This document shows positions 2,201-43,200 of a DNA stretch of 64,000 nt, one piece after another. Numbering within the stretch: the first letter of the stretch is position 1; each line of letters starts with the position of its first letter. Where the stretch lies: positions 42,057-106,056 of the forward strand of contig CAWJBB010000058.1 of assembly GCA_963840855.1 (NCBI GenBank), given 5' to 3'. The position numbers were made by a program, and so were the translations under genes. The notes under the pieces are model-generated. The model ran no database searches, had not been told where the DNA came from, and saw only the letters and a program-made list of their open reading frames with translations. Origin of the DNA: an uncultured delta proteobacterium (lineage in GTDB: Bacteria > Desulfobacterota > Binatia > UBA9968).

Positions 2201-3379
2201 CTATGAGGCTTTTTCAGCAGCCTGCGCCGCGAAGGAAAACGCGTCATAACCTTCGTGAATGAGACGAATGACTTCGTCTTTTTTCGGATCGCGGTTGACG
2301 CCCACCGGGTCTCTACCTTCTTGCACCGCAAGAATCTGCTCGCGCAGGAGTTTGCGGTACATGATGACACCGCGGTCCCCTTCACCCAGGTGTTCGTTGG
2401 CGCGGTCGGCTATGGGGCCCTGGGTCTCCCACGCCATGTGGTCCTGGCTGGCAAAGCTTTCCATATGGAACTCGCCGTCTTCGTTCTTGGTGCGGACATA
2501 CTCGATCGGCGCGTCCTCGGGCTGCGCCACGACACTGCCATCCTTGCTCGGCGCGAAGCGGAACTGAATGACTTGCGTGTTTTGGTCATCGATGGGCGTG
2601 CGAAAATGCATGGCGTAACCCATGCGCACGGGAACGAAGAGAAGGTTGGGAAAAACCAACGGGTGCGGTGATTCCACCGGGCCATCTTCGCCCGCGAAGG
2701 TCCTTTGTTTTTGAATCCCCGCCCAGCTGGGATTGACCACCAGTTCAAAATCGATCTTGCTCAGCCGCTGATAATGAAAGGGTACGAAGTCTCTGGTCCC
2801 TTTGGTTTTTAGCGTGTGCGAGTGAAGATAATACGTATGCGTCGGATCGACGGAGTTCTCCATCGCCTGGAGCCAATTGCAGCCAAGCACCTCGCAAATG
2901 TCGATTTTCTTCAAGCCGTCCTCGCGCACGAGTAGATCCCACTTGGGTAAAGTCGGCTTTTTCTCCGGCGGTCCCATGTAGGCGAACAAAAGCCCCGCGA
3001 GTTTTACCACCGGGTAGGCTGGATGCTGAATTTTCTCCTTGAAACCGGCCTCCGGACTCTCGAAGGGCTGGTCGATGCATTTGCCGCACGCGTCGTATTT
3101 CCAGCCATGATAGGCACAGCGGATGCCGTCTTCCTCGACGAATCCGTAATAGAGCGATACGCCGCGGTGCGAACACTTTTCGGCGACGAGACCGTAATTT
3201 CCTGTACGGTCTCGATAGAGGACCAGATTTTCGCCTAAAATTTTTACTTTCTTTTTTGGTTTTTCGTCGCTGAGCTCCGCGGCGGCCGCCACCACATGCC
3301 AATAACGCCTCAGCAGTTGTCCCGCGGGCGTCCCAGGACCTACGCGCGCAAGCAAATCGTTTTCTTCGTGACTGAGCAT
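2201..3379 (-). CDS. Rieske non-heme iron oxygenase (phthalate 4,5-dioxygenase/LigX-like)
   Basis: CSHRG...CAYHGW Rieske motif; ENSVDPTHTYYLH mononuclear iron motif; start placed at MLSHEEND after an AAGGAG RBS. Confidence 0.9.
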   Translation of the reverse strand: MLSHEENDLLARVGPGTPAGQLLRRYWHVVAAAAELSDEKPKKKVKILGENLVLYRDRTGNYGLVAEKCSHRGVSLYYGFVEEDGIRCAYHGWKYDACGKCIDQPFESPEAGFKEKIQHPAYPVVKLAGLLFAYMGPPEKKPTLPKWDLLVREDGLKKIDICEVLGCNWLQAMENSVDPTHTYYLHSHTLKTKGTRDFVPFHYQRLSKIDFELVVNPSWAGIQKQRTFAGEDGPVESPHPLVFPNLLFVPVRMGYAMHFRTPIDDQNTQVIQFRFAPSKDGSVVAQPEDAPIEYVRTKNEDGEFHMESFASQDHMAWETQGPIADRANEHLGEGDRGVIMYRKLLREQILAVQEGRDPVGVNRDPKKDEVIRLIHEGYDAFSFAAQAAEKAS

Positions 3380-3507
3380 GGCATAAACTCCTTTATCGTA
3401 CTCAACGCGGCTTTGATCCGATGCGACGATGCTATGCGATGGCTTCGTGGGTGTCAATGTAAAGGAGGCGAAGGTGTGGGCGGGTGATCCTCGCAAGGGA
3501 GAGCGAT

Positions 3508-3559
3508 GTAGGCCCCCGTGCATGCCCGAATCCGGGCGACCACAGGGGGTCGCCCCTAC
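3508..3559. repeat. GTAG-type REP-like palindromic repeat
   Basis: GTAGG...GGGCGACCACAGGGGGTCGCCCCTAC; near-identical inverted copy at 61069-61124. Confidence 0.75.
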
Positions 3560-3642: not shown

Positions 3643-4092
3643 GTGAACTGGCAAGAAAACCTGGTCGACGATTCAGATCAAATCGCCGCCTTGATCCGGC
3701 AGACCAAACGCATCGCCGTTCTCGGCATCAAGACCGAAGCGCAAGCCGACCAGCCTTCCGTTTACGTGCCGCTGTATATGCAACGGGCCGGATACGAGAT
3801 CGTTCCGGTGCCAGTATATTACCCGGATGCGACTGAAATCTTGGGTGAAAAGGTCTATCGGCGACTCACCGACATCCCCGGCGATATAGACATGGTCGAT
3901 GTCTTTCGCCGTCCCCATGACATCAACAGCCATATCGAAGATATTCTCGCTAAGAAACCGCCTTTAGTTTGGTTTCAGAGCGGCATACGCAACGATGCCG
4001 CGGCGGAAATCTTCGCCAAGGCCGGGATAAAGGTGGTCCAAGACCGCTGACTTATGGTCGACCACCGGCGGTTCGCCGGTGCAGTCCGCTGA
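3643..4092 (+). CDS. CoA-binding protein (YccU/CoA_binding_2 family), probable selenoprotein with in-frame TGA at 4048-4050
   Basis: IAVLG, DMVDVFR and VWFQSG family motifs; the ORF stops at VVQDR-TGA but continues in frame as LMVDHRRFAGAVR, matching the family's DRC-xxxH tail; hairpin follows the TGA. Confidence 0.85.
4063..4081 (+). promoter_or_regulatory. Candidate bacterial SECIS hairpin
   Basis: CACCGGCG-GTT-CGCCGGTG perfect 8-bp stem; G-first loop starts 20 nt after the TGA. Confidence 0.6.
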
Positions 4093-4118
4093 AAGGAAGT
4101 ACTTTTTTCGGCACCCTG

Positions 4119-5243
4119 CTAGGTCAAAAGATGGCGCGTCAAGTCGAGATTGGCGGTGAATGCCTCCGGCCGCGGTAGTTTCACGGAAGAATTGTAGATG
4201 ATGAGAGGAATGTTCGACTCATGGAGGGAGCCGTGTGAACGGTAACCGCGTTCGAGCTTTTCCATCGGTCCGGTAAGTTCGCCAAAAACAGTCTGGGCAT
4301 CGCCGAAAACTGCCAAATCACCTATCCGTTCGGCCATAAGATCGTACTTTTCCGCGGCTTCTCGACGCGGTAGGACGGCCTCCACGCCCGTGAGACTCTT
4401 GAGTGTCTGCGTCACTATTTGTTCGTCTTCCGGCGAGTTAAGCCAGACCCACGCGGCGCCACCGAACGTTCGGTGGTGCTTGACGTAACGGTCTTTTTCC
4501 GCCGACAGCGCAAAACGCACCTCGACGCCCAATTCGTGGCAAGCCTTGGCGAGGTCCCAACAGCGAGTTTTGTAGTTCATACCATGATCGGCCGTAAGCA
4601 AGAACGCGGCATCCGGCGCCGCTTCCAGCGCTTTGGCTAAGAGCCCATCTAGCCTTTCCAAGTGTTCTTTCGACTGCCGTTCTTCCGGAGCCCAAGTGTG
4701 CATTGGAAAGTCGGTGGTATGAACATACAGTAAGCCGATGTCCTTACGGTGTTTGAGCAGGTCGACGGCCACTTCCCACAGCCAGTAATTGATCTCGCAG
4801 CTGTAGATATTGGCCGGCTTGCCGTAGAGACCAACCCACTCAGCGGGCGGCGCTTCCGCGGCGATCGCGATTTCCGCGCCTTTGCCGAGCAGGTGAATGG
4901 TTTTGACTTTGGCGGTGAGCAGCGCCGATTTCACACCGCGGGCCGCGGCCCGCTGAATGATGGTCGGAACCCGAATGAACTCCGCGCTTTCCATATAATC
5001 GGCCACGCCGGTTTGTTCGTTGAAGTAGGAGTTGCCTGTAATGCCGTGATCCTTCGGCCATGCGCCGCAGCAAATGGATACGTTGTTGGCGTTGGTGACC
5101 GTCGGGAAAACCGCGTCAACCCGCTTAAAAAAGCCGCGCTGGCACATGAAGCGAAACGTCGGTAGAGAGTTCGCTTCGAGATAGTCCATGCCCAGACCAT
5201 CGTACATGCCGATAACGATTCTTTGTGCGCCGATCAGCGTCAT
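4119..5243 (-). CDS. phnA: Phosphonoacetate hydrolase-like (alkaline phosphatase superfamily)
   Basis: YDG, PTVTNANNVSI, HTTDFPMH, ADHGMN and RSHG motifs parallel those of PhnA. Confidence 0.75.
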   Translation of the reverse strand: MTLIGAQRIVIGMYDGLGMDYLEANSLPTFRFMCQRGFFKRVDAVFPTVTNANNVSICCGAWPKDHGITGNSYFNEQTGVADYMESAEFIRVPTIIQRAAARGVKSALLTAKVKTIHLLGKGAEIAIAAEAPPAEWVGLYGKPANIYSCEINYWLWEVAVDLLKHRKDIGLLYVHTTDFPMHTWAPEERQSKEHLERLDGLLAKALEAAPDAAFLLTADHGMNYKTRCWDLAKACHELGVEVRFALSAEKDRYVKHHRTFGGAAWVWLNSPEDEQIVTQTLKSLTGVEAVLPRREAAEKYDLMAERIGDLAVFGDAQTVFGELTGPMEKLERGYRSHGSLHESNIPLIIYNSSVKLPRPEAFTANLDLTRHLLT

Positions 5244-5324
5244 AGATAATACCTCCGAAAGCTAGCCCGGTTTATTCATAGTGTCTGACTCAGACGAAAG
5301 ACAATACAAGTCAGTGGAACCGAG

Positions 5325-6179
<855 letters not shown>

Positions 6180-6186
6180 CGAAGGC

Positions 6187-7050
6187 TCACCACTCTCGCC
6201 AACTTTTCATCACGGCTACACCTGAGTTTCCGATCATGAGCAGGGCAACCAGGATCAACGCCGTTGCGTAGGCTTGATCGGAAGAACTGGCCTCGCTAAC
6301 GAGGTAATACAAATGAGTCGGCAGAGTCATGACTGGAGATGAAAGTCCGATATCGCCTTTGGACAACACCACACTGGCGGTAAGCAACACCGGCGCCGCG
6401 GAGCCAAACGCATGACCGGCGGCAAGCACCACCGTCGCGAGAATCCCGCCGAAAGCTTTGGGCAAAATATTTTTGCGGAACGCATAGGAACGACTCACGC
6501 CAAGAGCAAGCGCCGTTTCCCGGTATTTTGACTCGACGCCGCGAATTGCCTCGTAGGCGCCGAGCAGCACAATCGGCAGCATGACCAACCCCAAAGTGAT
6601 TCCCCCGGCAAGCAGAGAAACTTTCATGCGCAGCCCGACGACCAGCATCGCATAGCCAAACAATCCGTAGACAATTGCTGGAACTCCGGCGAAACAGGCG
6701 CTGCAAAGAGCCACCATGCGCTGCATGGTTTCCGGCGGGTTGTATTCGCTGAGATAGATCGCCGCGCCCACTCCGAATGGCAGCGAAACCATGAGGCCCA
6801 GTGAGATGAGGGCGAGAGAGCCCTGGATCGCCGGCCGCATTCCGCCGCCGCTGCCCAAAGGAAAACCCTTGGGTGCCTGCCAAAGTAAATCCCAACTGAT
6901 CGCTTGGCCACCTCGGTAAAACAAGAAAACTATAATACAAAGCGGCAGCAGCGCGCCAAGTAGCCCGAAAATCCAAACACACAGGAAAAAAATCCGGTCC
7001 TGCCAAATGCGCAACTGCCGGTCCTGGGAAGCCAATTTAGGCGGCGTCAT
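6187..7050 (-). CDS. pstA: Phosphate-type ABC permease PstA
   Basis: AIYLSEY, GVPAIVYGLFG, ETALALG EAA motif. Confidence 0.8.
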   Translation of the reverse strand: MTPPKLASQDRQLRIWQDRIFFLCVWIFGLLGALLPLCIIVFLFYRGGQAISWDLLWQAPKGFPLGSGGGMRPAIQGSLALISLGLMVSLPFGVGAAIYLSEYNPPETMQRMVALCSACFAGVPAIVYGLFGYAMLVVGLRMKVSLLAGGITLGLVMLPIVLLGAYEAIRGVESKYRETALALGVSRSYAFRKNILPKAFGGILATVVLAAGHAFGSAAPVLLTASVVLSKGDIGLSSPVMTLPTHLYYLVSEASSSDQAYATALILVALLMIGNSGVAVMKSWREW

Positions 7051-7891
7051 AGATGATCCTTTTTTTCAGGACGCCGATAAGCATGTTGATCGCAATGGTG
7101 ACGACCATGAGGATCAATGCGGCCGAAAACAGGGCGTGATACTTGGGCGATCCCGCGGCGGCTTCGCCCAGTTCAGTGACGATGAGCGCGGTAAGGGGCT
7201 GGCCACGGTCGAAAGGAGACGTTGGCAGCGCCACGGAGTTTCCCGCCAACATAAGCACGGCAAGAGTTTCGCCCAGAGCGCGGGCCAGCCCCAGAGCCAT
7301 AGCGGCAAACATTCCCGCGCCGGCATAGCGCATGACGATTTGGCGCACCAGCGACCATCGATTAACGCCGAGCGCCAGCGCCGCTTCCTTAAGATCGGCT
7401 GGCACGGCGCGAAAGGCCTCGGCGGAAGTCGTTGCCACGAAAGGCAGGATCATGACCGCCAGGATCAAACCGGCGGCAAGTAACGATTCGCCCGTGCTCA
7501 TGTCGAGATTTTGTTCGAACCAAGGCACCAAGGTGACGTACCCGAAAAACCCATAAACGACGGAGGGGATGCCGGCGAGTAACTCTAGACAAGGCTGGAG
7601 TATTTTACGCACGGGCGCTGGGGCGACTTCCGCAAGAAAGATGCCGATGCCAAAACCCACCGGCGCCGCCGCCAGCAGCGCGACAGCCGTCACCGCCACT
7701 GTCCCGAGCAAAGCGTGACGCAAGCCAAATTTCGCCGGGCTCGCCAGCGGCTCCCAACTATCGGCAAGCAGCAATCCCCAAAGTCCACTTCCCTCGAAAA
7801 ATGCCGGATAGCCTTCCCGCGCGATCATCAACGGCACCAGCAAAAGTGTTCCCACAGCAGCCGACAGAATTAAGATTCCAGCCAGGCCCAT
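7037..7891 (-). CDS. pstC: Phosphate-type ABC permease PstC (start may lie further upstream)
   Basis: ELLAGIPSVVYGFFG, EAALALG, ARALGETLAV. Confidence 0.85.
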   Translation of the reverse strand: MGLAGILILSAAVGTLLLVPLMIAREGYPAFFEGSGLWGLLLADSWEPLASPAKFGLRHALLGTVAVTAVALLAAAPVGFGIGIFLAEVAPAPVRKILQPCLELLAGIPSVVYGFFGYVTLVPWFEQNLDMSTGESLLAAGLILAVMILPFVATTSAEAFRAVPADLKEAALALGVNRWSLVRQIVMRYAGAGMFAAMALGLARALGETLAVLMLAGNSVALPTSPFDRGQPLTALIVTELGEAAAGSPKYHALFSAALILMVVTIAINMLIGVLKKRIIYDAA

Positions 7892-7998
7892 AATGAAATC
7901 CTTGCTAGCGGTCGGCGCAATCCGAGGACGTTGGCGACGATCCAATCGGTGCCCGAAAATAGCCAGGCTTGCTGCGAACTTGTGGATGAATGAAGCGA

Positions 7999-8877
7999 TC
8001 AATTCGCGCTCCGCACGGGAATATAACCATGCGCAGCGACGAGTTTTTGGCAACTGCTAAGCGCGTAATCGACAAAATGGCGCACGGCGGGCGAAGGCGG
8101 AGCTTTGACCACCATCAGCAACGGCCGCGCCAACAGATAGGCGCCGCTGGTCACGTTGGCGTCAGTCGGTTCGACGGTTTCCAGGGCAAATGCTTTGAGG
8201 GTCTTGCTATGAGTGGCAAGCCCGGCAGAGATATAGGCTATCGCGTTATTGTTGCTGTGGAGTTTTTCCAGCAGCGCGCCCTGAGAAGGCAACTGCAGGG
8301 CTTTCGGCGACAGTTTCCTCTCGCCCATGATTTTTTCCTGGAATATTTCGGTTGAGCCCGCCCCGGCGTCGCGGGTTAATAGAACAATCGGCTTTGCCGG
8401 CAAAGATCGGTCGATATCTTGGTAGGTCTTAACCTCGCCGGAAAAAATCCCAGCCAACTCAGCGGGCGTAAAATTTTTCTTGCGGCCGGCCAAAGGGTTC
8501 CGGCTATTGACCGCGATCGCCACCGCGTCTTTGCCGACGAGATGCGTCTGGTGATCACCGATCGTTTTCTTTTCTTGATCCTTCAGATCGCGCGATACCA
8601 TGCCGATGTCGATGACGCCGCTGGCCAGCGATTTGACGCCAAACCCCGAGCCGCCGCCGGTGACAAAAACCGTGGTGCTCTTCTTCGGCAGGGAGGCATC
8701 CACGCGATCCCAGGTTTGAAATTTTTCCATGAATTCACTGCTGCAATTGGCCATGACGGGTAGGAGCGTGGTGGACCCGCCGGTGCGAACCGTCGGATCC
8801 GGCTCGTCGGCGGCGTGCGCCGCCGCGGCCAAGAACATCACTCCGGCAAGCAAAAGCAATCTTTGAATTCTTTTCAT
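7999..8877 (-). CDS. pstS: PstS-family periplasmic binding protein
   Basis: Signal peptide; GSTT, GGGSGFG, DIGMVSR, RDAGAGS. Confidence 0.85.
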   Translation of the reverse strand: MKRIQRLLLLAGVMFLAAAAHAADEPDPTVRTGGSTTLLPVMANCSSEFMEKFQTWDRVDASLPKKSTTVFVTGGGSGFGVKSLASGVIDIGMVSRDLKDQEKKTIGDHQTHLVGKDAVAIAVNSRNPLAGRKKNFTPAELAGIFSGEVKTYQDIDRSLPAKPIVLLTRDAGAGSTEIFQEKIMGERKLSPKALQLPSQGALLEKLHSNNNAIAYISAGLATHSKTLKAFALETVEPTDANVTSGAYLLARPLLMVVKAPPSPAVRHFVDYALSSCQKLVAAHGYIPVRSAN

Positions 8878-9541: not shown

Positions 9542-10411
9542 TCACGCCGCCTGGCGCAGTTTGTTTAACTGCCGGGCGATGAACGCCTTGATCTTTTCAT
9601 ATGCAAGGTCGGTGTTGGGACCGGGTTTGGCGACCCAACGGTGCTCGCTCCCTTTGAAGATCTCGAACTCGATCTGGCCGCCCGCCGCCCGATAAGTGTT
9701 GACGAATTTTTCCTGCACCGCGGGCCGGACGTTGTCATCGAGTTCCCCCTGCAAGACATACATCGGCGGCAACGCAACTTTCTCGCCGCGCTCGAGAATC
9801 TCTTGCGGATTGCCTTCGTGGATCGACTCCCACGGGTCAAAATAAGTTTTGCTGTTCTGGATCATTTGCTGCCACTCCCGCCTCTCAGCGTTCTGGTAGC
9901 GGGCGTATGGATCGCTCACCGGCGAGCGCGCCACGACGTATTTCACCGTCGCGTCGACGTTAGGCGCTTCGGGCAACGGATGCGCGTTGTAGCGCGGATC
10001 CTGCGGGCGCATGGCGCAGAGTTCTATTTCGTGCCCGCCGCTGGAGCTACCCAACGCCGCGACGGTGGCGGGATCGCCGTTCCATTCTCGCGCCTTCGCC
10101 TTGAGCCAGCGAACACCATAATTAGCGTCCTGCACTGAGGCGGGATAGGGCGCCTCCGGCGCGCGGGTTAAATCGATGGCCACGACTAGAATCCCGCTCC
10201 GCGCCAAACTTTCGTCCATCGGCGCGTTGGCGGTGCGGTCCTGGTTGTTCCACGCGCCGCCGTGCAGATCCAAGAGCGTTGGGAAGGGCCCTTCGCCTTG
10301 CGGTTGATAAACGCGCGCCATCAGCGTGCGCGCCGGTGCGCGGCGAAATTCGACGTCCGACACTTTGATTTCAAATTTGCCTCCAGGATTGTATGCGGCG
10401 GTCATAATCAT
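9542..10411 (-). CDS. Alpha/beta hydrolase (HSL-like esterase)
   Basis: LHGGAW, GSSSGG nucleophile elbow, GELDD, C-terminal His. Confidence 0.85.
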   Translation of the reverse strand: MIMTAAYNPGGKFEIKVSDVEFRRAPARTLMARVYQPQGEGPFPTLLDLHGGAWNNQDRTANAPMDESLARSGILVVAIDLTRAPEAPYPASVQDANYGVRWLKAKAREWNGDPATVAALGSSSGGHEIELCAMRPQDPRYNAHPLPEAPNVDATVKYVVARSPVSDPYARYQNAERREWQQMIQNSKTYFDPWESIHEGNPQEILERGEKVALPPMYVLQGELDDNVRPAVQEKFVNTYRAAGGQIEFEIFKGSEHRWVAKPGPNTDLAYEKIKAFIARQLNKLRQAA

Positions 10412-10530
10412 TCCTCCCTTTGCGATGTTTGAAACAGGGCATCTATCAGACATCGCATGGCATACCGCCATGGAGTTCTCCTGTCAAGGCGATTTTTGCG
10501 CACCCGATTTTTTCGGGGCCGTAAAAATCG

Positions 10531-39787: not shown

Positions 39788-40250
39788 GGGTAACCGGGCA
39801 CTCGTTCCTCCTCCTACGACGAACGTGAATCACAAACACTCTGCACAAATCTCCCGTCTATCCTTCCTTGACGCTTGGCGTCCAACTGGCGTAGAAGTTG
39901 GGGTCAGCCGCATTTCGGTCCATTTGCGCAGTCGGTAGAAAGCCGGATATCTAACCGTTGATCCGCCACAGGACGGATCAGCCACAACTTTCAAGGCTGA
40001 CGCGCTGAGGGCGCAGAATAAAGAATTCTTGATTAAGAAATACTGCGAACTCTGTGAATTCTGTGGTCGTGAGAAAAAATCGCCACTCGCCCTTCGACGT
40101 GCTCAGGACGAACGGCTAAGTACTTGAATTACCCATTACGCCATCCCGTTCGTGCTGAGGCTCTCGAAGCATGAACGGATTTTTTCTCACGGCCTGTGCC
40201 TCTGAGGTGAATAATCTTTCACATTAAACCTGAAAGAACCTTTAGCTCAT

Positions 40251-43200
40251 ATGGCAACAACCCCAAAAAAAGTCGCGAAGAAATCAAAACCAAAGCCGCG
40301 CGCCGCGTCCTCGGCGGATGCTGTCTCGAAGCTGAAGAAGACCATCGCCGCGCAGGCGCAAGAAATTCGCGAGGGCGCCGAGCAGCAAACCGCGACCAGC
40401 GACATCCTGCGCATGATCGCCCGCTCGCCGGCAGACCTTCAGACGGTGCTCGATGCGATTGCCGAGCGAGCGGCGAAGCTGTGCGACGCGGCCGACGCTC
40501 TGGTGTGGCGGGTCGATGGCACTGTTCGACGCCTCGCGGCTCACTTTGGATCCGTTCCAACTGCAGTGAGCGTGGGTGCTGAAGAACATAACTCGGGTCG
40601 GACCGGAACCGTTGGCCGAGCTATGTTGGATCGCCAGACCATTCACGTACATGATCTTCTCGCTGCTGAGGCAGATTTCCCAGCTGCCAGGACCCGAGGA
40701 ATAGCACTTGGCGTTCGGACCACGCTCGTCACGCCCTTAATGCGCGACGGAATTGCCATCGGCGCTGTTCACATTCGCCGCCTGCAAGTCCGGCCATTCA
40801 CAGAAGGGCAAATCAAGCTGCTCGAAACCTTCGCCGACCAAGCGGTGATCGCGATCGAGAACGTTCGACTGTTCAAGGAATTGCAGGAACGCAACCGCGA
40901 CCTCACCGAAACACTGGAGCAACAGACGGCGACGAGTGAAATTCTTAGCGTGATCGCCAGCTCGCCCACGGATATCCAACCGGTCCTAGACACTGTGGCA
41001 GCAAATGCCGCCCGACTATGCGAGGCAACCGATGCACAGATTCGCCTCGTGGAGGGTGATGGAATCCGATTAGTGGCATCTTACGGAACTCTGCCAGCTC
41101 CGGAGTTTAGGTCTACGAGCCTACGAGGTCCCAGTAGCCGAGCGCTTCGTGACCGAGAGACCATACATGTTCACGATCTTTTGGAAGCAGCGAAAACCGA
41201 ATATCCCGAGAGTGAGGGCGCGCGCTTTGGAGTCCGGACTATTCTTTGTACGCCAATGCTAAGAGAGGGCGCTCCTATTGGTGTGATCACTATCAGGCGA
41301 ACGGAAGTTCGTCCATTCTCACACAGACAAATCAAGCTGCTGGAAACCTTCGCCTCCCAGGCCGTCATCGCGATCGAGAACGTGCGCTTGTTCAAGGCAC
41401 TTGAGGTGCGCAACTCAGAATTACGCGAGGCCCTGGAACATCAGACCGCAACGGCCGAGGTGCTCGGCATCATCAGCCGCTCGCCCACGGACGTGCAGCC
41501 AGTCCTCGATGCCATCGTCGAGAGCGCCGCTCGGGTTTGTGGAATTGATGACGTGGTGCTGCGACTCCACGAAGGGAACAATACCGTTCCGCGGGCTCAT
41601 TTTGGTCCCATGGCCATTAACCGAATCGAGATCAGTATTGACGAGCCACGGTTTCGCTGGCTGCGCGAACATGGCACGCTCCACGTTCCCGACGTCCGCG
41701 AGCGGAACGAACTCCAACTCGGGCTTGTCGGAGGCTGGCGTACCCTCTTGTCCGTTCCACTTCGTCAGCAAAGGGAACTCATCGGATCGCTGAACGCGCG
41801 GCGCATCGAGGTGCGCCCCTTTACCCCCGTGCAGATCAAGCTACTCGAAACCTTCGCAGACCAGGCGGTGATCGCCATCGAAAACGTGCGGCTGTTCCAA
41901 GAGCTTACTGAGTCACTGGAGCAGCAGACTGCGACGAGTGAAATCTTGGGCGTCATTGCTAGCTCGCCGACGGATATTCAGCCGGTGCTCGATGTTGTTG
42001 CCGAAAACGCGGCGCGGCTTTGTGACGCAACTGATGCTCAGATCATTCGTGTCGAGGGTGATTTCACTCGGACTGTGGCCTCCTATGGAACACAACCCGG
42101 ACACGGGCGTGAGGATAAACGCCCAATCACCCGCGGCAGGGTAGCCAGCCGGGCCATCACTGACCGGCAGACGATTCATATTCACGATCTCGCCGCGGAG
42201 AGCGACAGCGAGTTTGCGGAAAGCAAGATCTTACAAAAGCGTTTCGGGACTCGGACTATTCTTGCCACGCCTTTGCAGCGTGAGGGCGTACCCATCGGCG
42301 CGATCGCCATTCGGCGAACCGACGTCCGTCCGTTTACGGATAAGCAGATTAAACTGCTTGAGACTTTCGCCGATCAAGCTGTAATCGCCATCGAGAACGT
42401 CCGCTTGTTTAAAGAACTCGGCGAGCGCAACGCGGAATTGCGGGAAGCCTTGGAGCATCAGACGGCAACCGCCGAGGTGCTCGGCATCATCAGCCGCTCG
42501 CCCACCGACGTGCAGCCGGTCCTCGACGCCATCGTCGAGGGCGCAGCCCGGGTTTGTGGGATTGATGACGTAATAATGCGACTCCAAGAGGGGACCACTA
42601 ATGTTGCGCGGGCTCATTTCGGTTCCATACCCATCCGCAGCGTCGAGATCACTATTGATGAACCACGGTTTCGTTGGATGCGCGAGCATGGCGCGCTCCA
42701 TGTTCCCGACGTCCTCGAGCAAAACGATTTCCCAACGTTAGGCTCCGCCGGCATCTTTCGCACCTACTTGGCCGCTCCCCTTCGTCAGCACGGGGAAGTC
42801 GTTGGAACGCTGAGCGCGCGTCGCACCGAGGTGCGCCCCTTTACTCCAGCACAGATCAAGCTCCTTGAGACCTTCGCCGATCAGGCGGTGATCGCCATCG
42901 AGAACGTGCGGCTATTCAACGAGCTAAAAGAGTCATTGGAGCAGCAAACCGCGACGAGTGAAATATTGGGCGTTATCGCCAGCTCGCCGACGGACCTACA
43001 ACCGGTGCTGGATGTGGTCGCAGAAACCGCAGCGCGTCTATGTAACTCCCATGATGCTCAGATCTATCGCCTTGAGGGCGACATCGTGCGCAAAGTGGCG
43101 AGCCACGGAGTCGTCTCTACAGCCCTTGAGCTTGGGGAGATCCGACCGATCAGTCGTGGTTCCGCGAGCGGCCGCGCCATTCTCGACCGGCAGACAATCC

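Follow-up and report, generated by a model that had tools for sequence, protein, structure and literature searches.

The closest described relatives of the protein considered here are two stand-alone coenzyme A (CoA)-binding proteins solved by structural genomics, TT1466 of Thermus thermophilus (structure entries 1iuk and 1iul) and PH1109 of Pyrococcus horikoshii (2d59, 2d5a and 2e6u). The entry names that we saw give no function, and we know of none assigned to this family in more than twenty years. Recoding of UGA as selenocysteine (Sec) by a hairpin 3' of the codon is textbook biology, and further selenoprotein families continue to be described. We analyzed a 64,000-nucleotide (nt) stretch of DNA from an uncultured delta proteobacterium (GenBank assembly GCA_963840855.1, contig CAWJBB010000058.1, positions 42,057 to 106,056); this whole stretch is referred to below as the window, and gene coordinates are on its numbering. 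We conclude that its CoA-binding gene at 3643..4092 (+ strand) is very probably a selenoprotein gene, in which UGA codon 136 is decoded as Sec through SelB and tRNA-Sec. The window protein belongs to the same family as TT1466 and PH1109 and has the same length (E = 1.1e-28 and 1.7e-18, respectively, with the single sequence as query; 2.2e-34 and 7.3e-24 with a profile). It also shares with them the C-terminal motif around a cysteine (Cys), but they have Cys itself where the window gene has UGA. That the window protein binds CoA is presumed from the family name and from the titles of the structure entries.

A third protein for comparison is YneT of Bacillus subtilis, a 135-residue putative CoA-binding protein. 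In the passages that concern it, PMC8127865 gives YneT as one of four CoA-modified proteins reported in Bacillus spores, with CoA on C126 in the peptide TVIMDLC126IK. This Cys lies nine residues from the C-terminus, and its surroundings (V-I-M-D-L-C-I) resemble V-V-Q-D-R-U-L in the window protein (U denotes Sec) and VVMDRC in the solved chain 2duw. YneT differs from the window protein in having Cys, not Sec. In spores its modification might reflect damage or storage and does not have to mean catalysis.

Standard gene calling begins an open reading frame at the GTG at 3643 and stops it at 4050, which gives a protein of 135 amino acids ending in ...KVVQDR. Beyond this TGA (4048..4050, + strand) the same frame reads LMVDHRRFAGAVR for 13 codons (4051..4089, + strand), up to a second TGA at 4090–4092 that we regard as the true stop of a full-length gene of 149 residues. 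The GTG start is aligned with the ATG (MNWQ...) of relatives in the same genus. A preliminary description of this DNA had pointed out the ...KVVQDR-TGA end, the continuation of the frame to 4092, and a perfect 8-bp hairpin with a G-first loop 20 nt after the TGA, all of which we recovered. It had also named a DRC...H motif for the family, and our domain match and alignments do place this motif at the TGA. The read-through protein matches PF13380 (CoA_binding_2) with an E-value of 1.2e-33 (116.5 bits; cut-off 22.8) over residues 22–141, a match that covers profile positions 1–115 of 116 and extends five residues past the TGA. It aligns end to end with the solved chains 1iuk, 2duw (a Klebsiella-type putative CoA-binding protein) and 2d59, with the Cys of VVADRCLMVEHKRL (1iuk), VVMDRC (2duw) and IVANRCMMREHERL (2d59) opposite the TGA column. 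The motif at this site in the solved relatives is D-R-C-L-M-V-E-H, with Cys at the TGA position.

Across an alignment of 30 sequences (A1), column 136 is the sole invariant Cys column; D134, R135, C136 (U here), L137, M138, V139 and H141 are all invariant. Residue 136 is also the only Cys-type residue in the window protein. An AlphaFold2 model (mean predicted local distance difference test score 95.3) predicts a strand at 130–132, then Q-D-R-U, then a helix at 137–149 formed by the 13 codons after the TGA, which would place residue 136 between the last beta-strand and the N-terminus of the C-terminal helix. A stop at position 136 would therefore cost the protein this helix, along with the family's invariant Cys and His.

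To see which codon other organisms have at this position, we examined the source genome together with its 60 nearest genomes (61 in total). A close orthologue (E ≤ 4.8e-56) is present in 33 of them, and the codon could be read in 32; G046 was left out, no stop being reported inside its match. TGA occurs at exactly this column in nine of the 32, and the other 23 have Cys. The nine consist of the source genome, three genomes of the same genus and one from another genus of the same family, which all belong to the group called clade A below, and four species of a single genus in a different family of the same order, which make up clade B. Two genomes in our tallies (G009 and G015) are flagged as unpublished; neither has the TGA form, and dropping them shifts the counts by at most 2. 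In a collection of species-representative genomes, TGA was found at 14 of 80 loci and TGC or TGT at 62, with four loci unparsed; the TGA records are metagenome-assembled genomes labelled Candidatus Binatia, uncultured delta proteobacterium, Thermodesulfobacteriota or Syntrophobacter sp. SbD2. Metagenome contigs gave 80 loci, of which 71 could be parsed, and 44 of these have TGA.

Protein databases have the same pattern in truncated form. Of the best 120 protein clusters (at 90% identity), 89 end exactly in ...DR, and 85 of those are 135 amino acids long; the remaining clusters have D-R-C (30 clusters) or D-L-C (one cluster). Because we saw the clusters as proteins and not as DNA, we infer the TGA in these 89. 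Where the clusters have names, they are called 'CoA-binding protein', 'hypothetical protein' or 'uncharacterized protein'. We also ran a PF13380 profile search on 401 genomes of the phylum and examined the best 150 of its 1,773 matches, among which there was no internal TGA; a sample of this kind says little about other subfamilies that may bear Sec. With the window protein as the query, nine of the 401 phylum genomes have a close orthologue, and TGA was seen only in the source genome.

After removal of eight duplicate loci, we had 100 distinct genome rows, 79 with Cys and 21 with TGA, and no other residue appears in the parsed rows. The preliminary description had asked whether Cys and TGA alternate among relatives with conserved coding downstream, and they do so at this one column. 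In a maximum-likelihood tree of the 100 rows, the 21 TGA rows fall into two clades. Clade A comprises 17 TGA rows and one Cys row, with a Shimodaira–Hasegawa-like approximate likelihood ratio test (SH-aLRT) value of 97, and in clade B all four rows have TGA (SH-aLRT 95). The tree needs at least three changes of state, two of which are forced by well-supported branches, although it is slightly circular in that its input included the columns after the TGA. Clades A and B also differ in genome family, in the sequence of the hairpin and in the downstream peptide. The sole Cys row within clade A (L058; CAWERH010000065.1, TGC at locus position 2906) has a 7-bp relic of the hairpin with the loop CTT instead of GTT, and Glu replaces Asp at codon +4. 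This row appears to be a revertant from Sec to Cys whose selenocysteine insertion sequence (SECIS) is decaying.

These counts bear on the simplest explanation of an in-frame TGA, that a TGC or TGT codon has undergone a point change to TGA in a decaying or mis-assembled gene. TGA is one base away from either codon, and selB has a one-base indel in this assembly (see below). Against this, 21 distinct genome rows share the same TGA with 44 metagenome contigs, and the frames on both sides are intact, so it is not a read error, a point that the preliminary description had wanted settled. An assembled contig of a public sequencing run (X1) covers 3672–4098 with no difference listed at 4048–4050, although X1 may come from the source sample. 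At the level of the family the explanation by decay or error is already refuted, and we give it practically no credence for the window gene. Contigs from RNA libraries cover 3659–3867 (X16) and 4059–4200 (X15); they leave the TGA unspanned and are not proof of transcription.

We then compared codons among the 17 TGA-bearing genome rows of clade A, which represent 17 species. The six codons 5' of the TGA are all synonymously variable (AAG/AAA, GTG/GTC/GTA, CAA/CAG, GAC/GAT and CGC/CGT/CGA/AGG). On the 3' side, codons +1 (Leu, CTT/CTG), +4 (Asp, GAC/GAT) and +10 (Gly, all four GGN codons) vary by synonymous changes only, and there is not a single amino acid change in codons +1 to +10. Such purely synonymous variation marks a frame that is translated. 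Codons +5 to +9 (CAC CGG CGG TTC GCC), which form the stem and loop of the hairpin, do not vary at any synonymous site across the 17 rows, and neither does the hairpin core CCGGCG-GTT-CGCCGG. Invariance of this kind marks selection on an RNA structure beyond what the coding sequence requires. The peptide H-R-R-F encoded here is also found in six Cys-form rows, where CGC and CGG are mixed and five rows have CGC at the codon that supplies the loop G with its third base; of the six, only L058 retains a comparable hairpin. Variation among the 44 metagenome copies with TGA is likewise mostly synonymous, with a few conservative changes, and Leu +1 uses all four CTN codons. In the stem of these copies there are changes from G-C to G-U pairing in three (GCC to GTC) and three single mismatches, and the loop is widened in four, for example to GGTCA.

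This pattern distinguishes our reading from the one in which the TGA is a genuine stop, the protein has 135 residues and lacks the last helix, and the hairpin downstream is a non-coding element that acts at the transcript end or in regulation. Public gene calls do end the protein at ...DR; the loss would be small, with a second stop only 10–17 codons further on; the hairpin is rich in GC and located close to the 3' end of the gene; and read-through is our deduction. A non-coding hairpin, however, would not give a synonymous-only pattern, and the substitutions after the TGA fall at synonymous sites (Leu with four codons, Asp with two, Gly with four) throughout the 17 rows and almost so in the 44 metagenome copies. 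No run of T follows the stem, and the hairpin was not scored as terminator-like, so we rejected it as a terminator. A genuine stop would also delete the invariant Cys, the His and the whole helix 137–149, and it would have to account for two clades having reached the same arrangement with different hairpins. We therefore regard a genuine stop as very improbable, and read the UGA as a Sec codon.

The hairpin of the window gene (4063..4081, + strand) has the sequence CACCGGCG-GTT-CGCCGGTG. Its stem comprises eight perfect pairs (4063–4070 with 4074–4081), the loop is at 4071–4073, and 20 nt separate the A of the TGA from the loop G. The hairpin alone folds at −13.7 kcal/mol. The consensus for bacterial SECIS elements, as stated in the relevant passages of PMC13188914, is a loop of 3–9 nt with G within its first two positions followed by U, a stem of 4–16 bp, a distance of 16–37 nt from the UGA, and a minimum free energy of −7.5 kcal/mol or lower. 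All four of these properties are found in the window hairpin (GUU loop, 8-bp stem, 20-nt spacing, −13.7 kcal/mol), which thus fits the published model for bacterial SECIS elements (bSECIS), as the preliminary description had supposed. As far as the same passages describe them, with E. coli fdh as the studied cases, bacterial elements resemble ours in their small apical loop, which begins with G and then U, and in their upper stem of 6–8 bp. The spacing is likewise similar, at 20 nt in clade A and 23 nt in clade B. The window hairpin differs in having an unbulged, very GC-rich stem that closes a loop of three bases. In the window sequence only, RNAfold predicts an additional lower GAC/GUC stem (4060–4086) with a CA bulge. 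In clade B the hairpin is GGTCGCC-GGC-GGCGACC, 23 nt after the TGA, and it encodes H-R-S-P-A-A-T at the same place. When we applied the published bSECIS rules to the genome rows, together with a minimum stem of 6 bp, a hairpin was found in all 21 Sec rows versus 9 of the 79 Cys rows.

The preliminary description had also called for Sec genes in the genome, and this part stood up incompletely: selA and selD are there, while selB is frameshifted and no tRNA-Sec was found in the assembly. The source assembly totals 7.1 Mb in 93 contigs, with 94% completeness and 8% contamination. The genes selD, selB and selA lie side by side on another of its contigs (C1). SelA scores 616.3 bits (cut-off 267.9) and SelD 382.6 bits (cut-off 125), and selD has one in-frame TGA at the classical Sec/Cys site (...KAAG-U-AAK...). 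By this TGA, selD (L011; C1 37,592–38,518, − strand) is itself a selenoprotein gene, and about 33 nt after the TGA there is a hairpin, GTGCAA-GTT-TTGCAC, with the same GUU loop as the hairpin of the CoA-binding gene. Among the 61 genomes, the source included, selA is present in 57 and tRNA-Sec in 47, one of the latter being a genome of the same genus. The nine genomes with TGA in the CoA-binding gene all have selA, and six of the nine have tRNA-Sec.

Several observations weigh against the Sec reading. The hairpin by itself is not statistically unusual: the fold of a 71-nt segment is unremarkable (z = −1.77; 9 of 200 shuffled sequences fold as well), and in the GC-rich source genome, where we sampled 10% of all TGA triplets, 45 of 21,338 triplets (0.21%) are followed by a perfect stem of at least 8 bp with a fitting loop and spacing, and 566 of 21,338 (2.7%) by such a stem of at least 6 bp. 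Fully compensatory double changes in the stem were not found among the 44 metagenome copies. The case therefore rests on comparative evidence, and what is beyond chance is the combination of the hairpin with a TGA on an invariant Cys, recurring in many species. The presumed equivalence of YneT C126 to residue 136 comes from a match made by eye over a peptide of nine residues. Nearly all relatives, across the order, use Sec, so the presence of the machinery agrees with the Sec reading but fails to discriminate between TGA and Cys forms. Sec insertion and read-through themselves are steps that we infer from the DNA.

The remaining points against it come from the Sec machinery of the source assembly. 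Its selB is in two frames (207.6 and 193 bits), split at about residue 175. The break (C1 ~39,976–39,989; loci L003 and L004) is caused by one extra C relative to the three same-genus relatives that we aligned, the sequence being GCGCCG-C-AACGG compared to GCGCCG-AACGG in two same-genus relatives, and selB is a single open frame in all five relatives checked. Either the assembly is in error here or Sec decoding was lost very recently; if the frameshift is real, the strain could not insert Sec. Searches with Rfam, with ARAGORN and by BLAST with the tRNA-Sec of a same-genus genome did not find tRNA-Sec in the source assembly, nor was it found at the sel locus or at two loci that resemble the flank of a relative's tRNA-Sec. 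The best matches to the Rfam model RF01852 in this genome are tRNA-Ser genes, at 43 bits or less. However, ARAGORN reports only 39 tRNA genes in the 7.1 Mb, with several expected ones missing (for example, any tRNA-Asn), so in an assembly that is 94% complete the absence of an RNA gene carries little weight.

These defects raise the possibility that the family truly consists of selenoproteins, but that in this strain SelB has been broken by the frameshift and UGA136 now terminates translation. The extra C at about residue 175 relative to three same-genus genomes, the intact selB of five out of five relatives and the tRNA-Sec missing from the assembly speak for it. On the other hand, both selD, with its own in-frame TGA, and the CoA-binding gene retain intact frames and hairpins, so any loss of Sec decoding would be very recent. 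Many tRNA genes are missing from the assembly besides tRNA-Sec, and single-base indels are common as assembly errors. We consider this explanation improbable; the selB lesion and the missing tRNA-Sec weaken the case for the source assembly, not for the family. Overall, the interpretation already offered in the preliminary description, that the UGA is read as Sec, is supported by the alternation at one column, by selection on the downstream frame, by the hairpin and by the presence of selA and selD.

The spacer between selA and selB (C1 ~40,574–40,690; L021 12,575–12,691) contains a palindromic stretch that a plant microRNA model matches weakly on both strands, at 28 bits, far below threshold. 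Its six-frame translation shows a repeated short unit, and it is probably a repeat or hairpin array.

Whether the family had already been catalogued as a selenoprotein was a question left by the preliminary description. A review of May 2026 lists 119 families or subfamilies with their domain accessions in its Table 1, which it calls 'the most comprehensive inventory' (PMC13188914). This table has no CoA-binding protein and no PF13380; its three rows that refer to CoA are a CoA-disulfide reductase, HgcA and a DsbA-like/crotonase protein. The NCBIfam selenoprotein models gave no match, only three weak sub-threshold hits to acyl-CoA ligases. CoA is unmentioned in the main texts of the BSepDB and deep-Sep papers (BSepDB Table S2 lies outside those texts), and our literature search found no paper linking the CoA-binding family, PF13380 or COG1832 to selenocysteine. 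Papers on CoA modification and single-domain CoA-binding proteins, searched as well, added nothing more on this family. We could not find the family catalogued, and it appears as a new selenoprotein family relative to Table 1 and the NCBIfam models.

In the window, the CoA-binding gene stands alone on the + strand between genes of the opposite strand, with no operon partner. Upstream and divergent from it is a gene for a Rieske [2Fe-2S] oxygenase with a LigXa-like C-terminal domain (2201–3523, − strand). This neighbor is shared with two same-genus relatives (L024 and L025) and not with the other clade A loci, among which the upstream neighbors vary. Downstream, on the opposite strand, are a phosphodiesterase gene and a block of four ATP-binding cassette (ABC) transporter genes (4119–8877). 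In nine other clade A loci (L055, L056, L057, L059, L060, L062, L065, L067 and L069) the convergent downstream neighbor is an alpha/beta-hydrolase gene (BD-FAE/Abhydrolase_3), and the window has such a gene at 9542–10471 (− strand), beyond the phosphodiesterase gene and the transporter block. This arrangement suggests that the phosphodiesterase and ABC genes are an insertion between the CoA-binding and hydrolase genes. Beyond the frequent convergent alpha/beta-hydrolase gene, the neighborhood gives no clue to function.

Sec is costly to insert and nearly confined to catalytic redox sites, so its presence at the single invariant Cys of a family is a strong pointer to the site of chemistry. A Cys or Sec that stands alone at the N-terminus of a helix and lacks a resolving Cys suggests that the mechanism uses one cysteine and an external thiol, for which the CoA bound by the fold is the obvious candidate. 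We propose that the gene makes a 149-residue stand-alone CoA-binding protein of the YccU/YneT/TT1466/PH1109 type, in which UGA codon 136 would be recoded by SelB and tRNA-Sec as directed by the GUU-loop hairpin 20 nt downstream, putting Sec in place of the family's single invariant Cys. Sec136 could then form a reversible selenenyl-sulfide with the thiol of CoA, either the CoA in the protein's own pocket or that of a CoA-modified substrate. Such a bond to a CoA thiol seems to us the most likely chemistry.

One could go further and see the YccU/YneT/TT1466/PH1109 proteins as 'CoA-redoxins', redox enzymes with one active cysteine for which the CoA held by the protein serves as thiol partner and which, through a Cys/Sec-S-CoA bond, remove or transfer CoA from oxidized (CoA-modified) proteins or CoA disulfide, with an upgrade from Cys to Sec having taken place independently in two lineages. 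This proposal is tentative, and we think it somewhat less likely than not. Upgrades from Cys to Sec have also occurred in enzymes of the thioredoxin, glutaredoxin and peroxiredoxin types. Succinyl-CoA synthetase alpha also has a Cys near the CoA thiol, which may be the counterpart of residue 136. A profile–profile comparison of alignment A1 with the alpha subunit of the source genome, aimed at the Cys of its L-L-G-P-N-C-P-G stretch, did not align the two families meaningfully (probability 0.6%). Table 1 offers a precedent for the use of Sec in CoA-thiol chemistry, a Sec-using protein that handles the CoA thiol (PMC13188914), but it has an unrelated fold, belongs to an unrelated family and works by a flavin enzyme mechanism.

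If the UGA is read as we propose, Sec marks the conserved Cys of an uncharacterized and widespread CoA-binding family as its reactive residue. Together with the CoA modification of the apparently equivalent Cys of YneT, the Sec site leads to a testable hypothesis of a covalent Cys/Sec-CoA intermediate. Public annotation truncates these genes, as the ...DR ends of 89 of the best 120 clusters illustrate, and a family frequent in soil metagenomes would be added to selenoprotein catalogues and to the profile sets derived from those. If the proposed chemistry is also true, the protein would be an active player in CoA thiol/disulfide chemistry rather than a passive binder of CoA.

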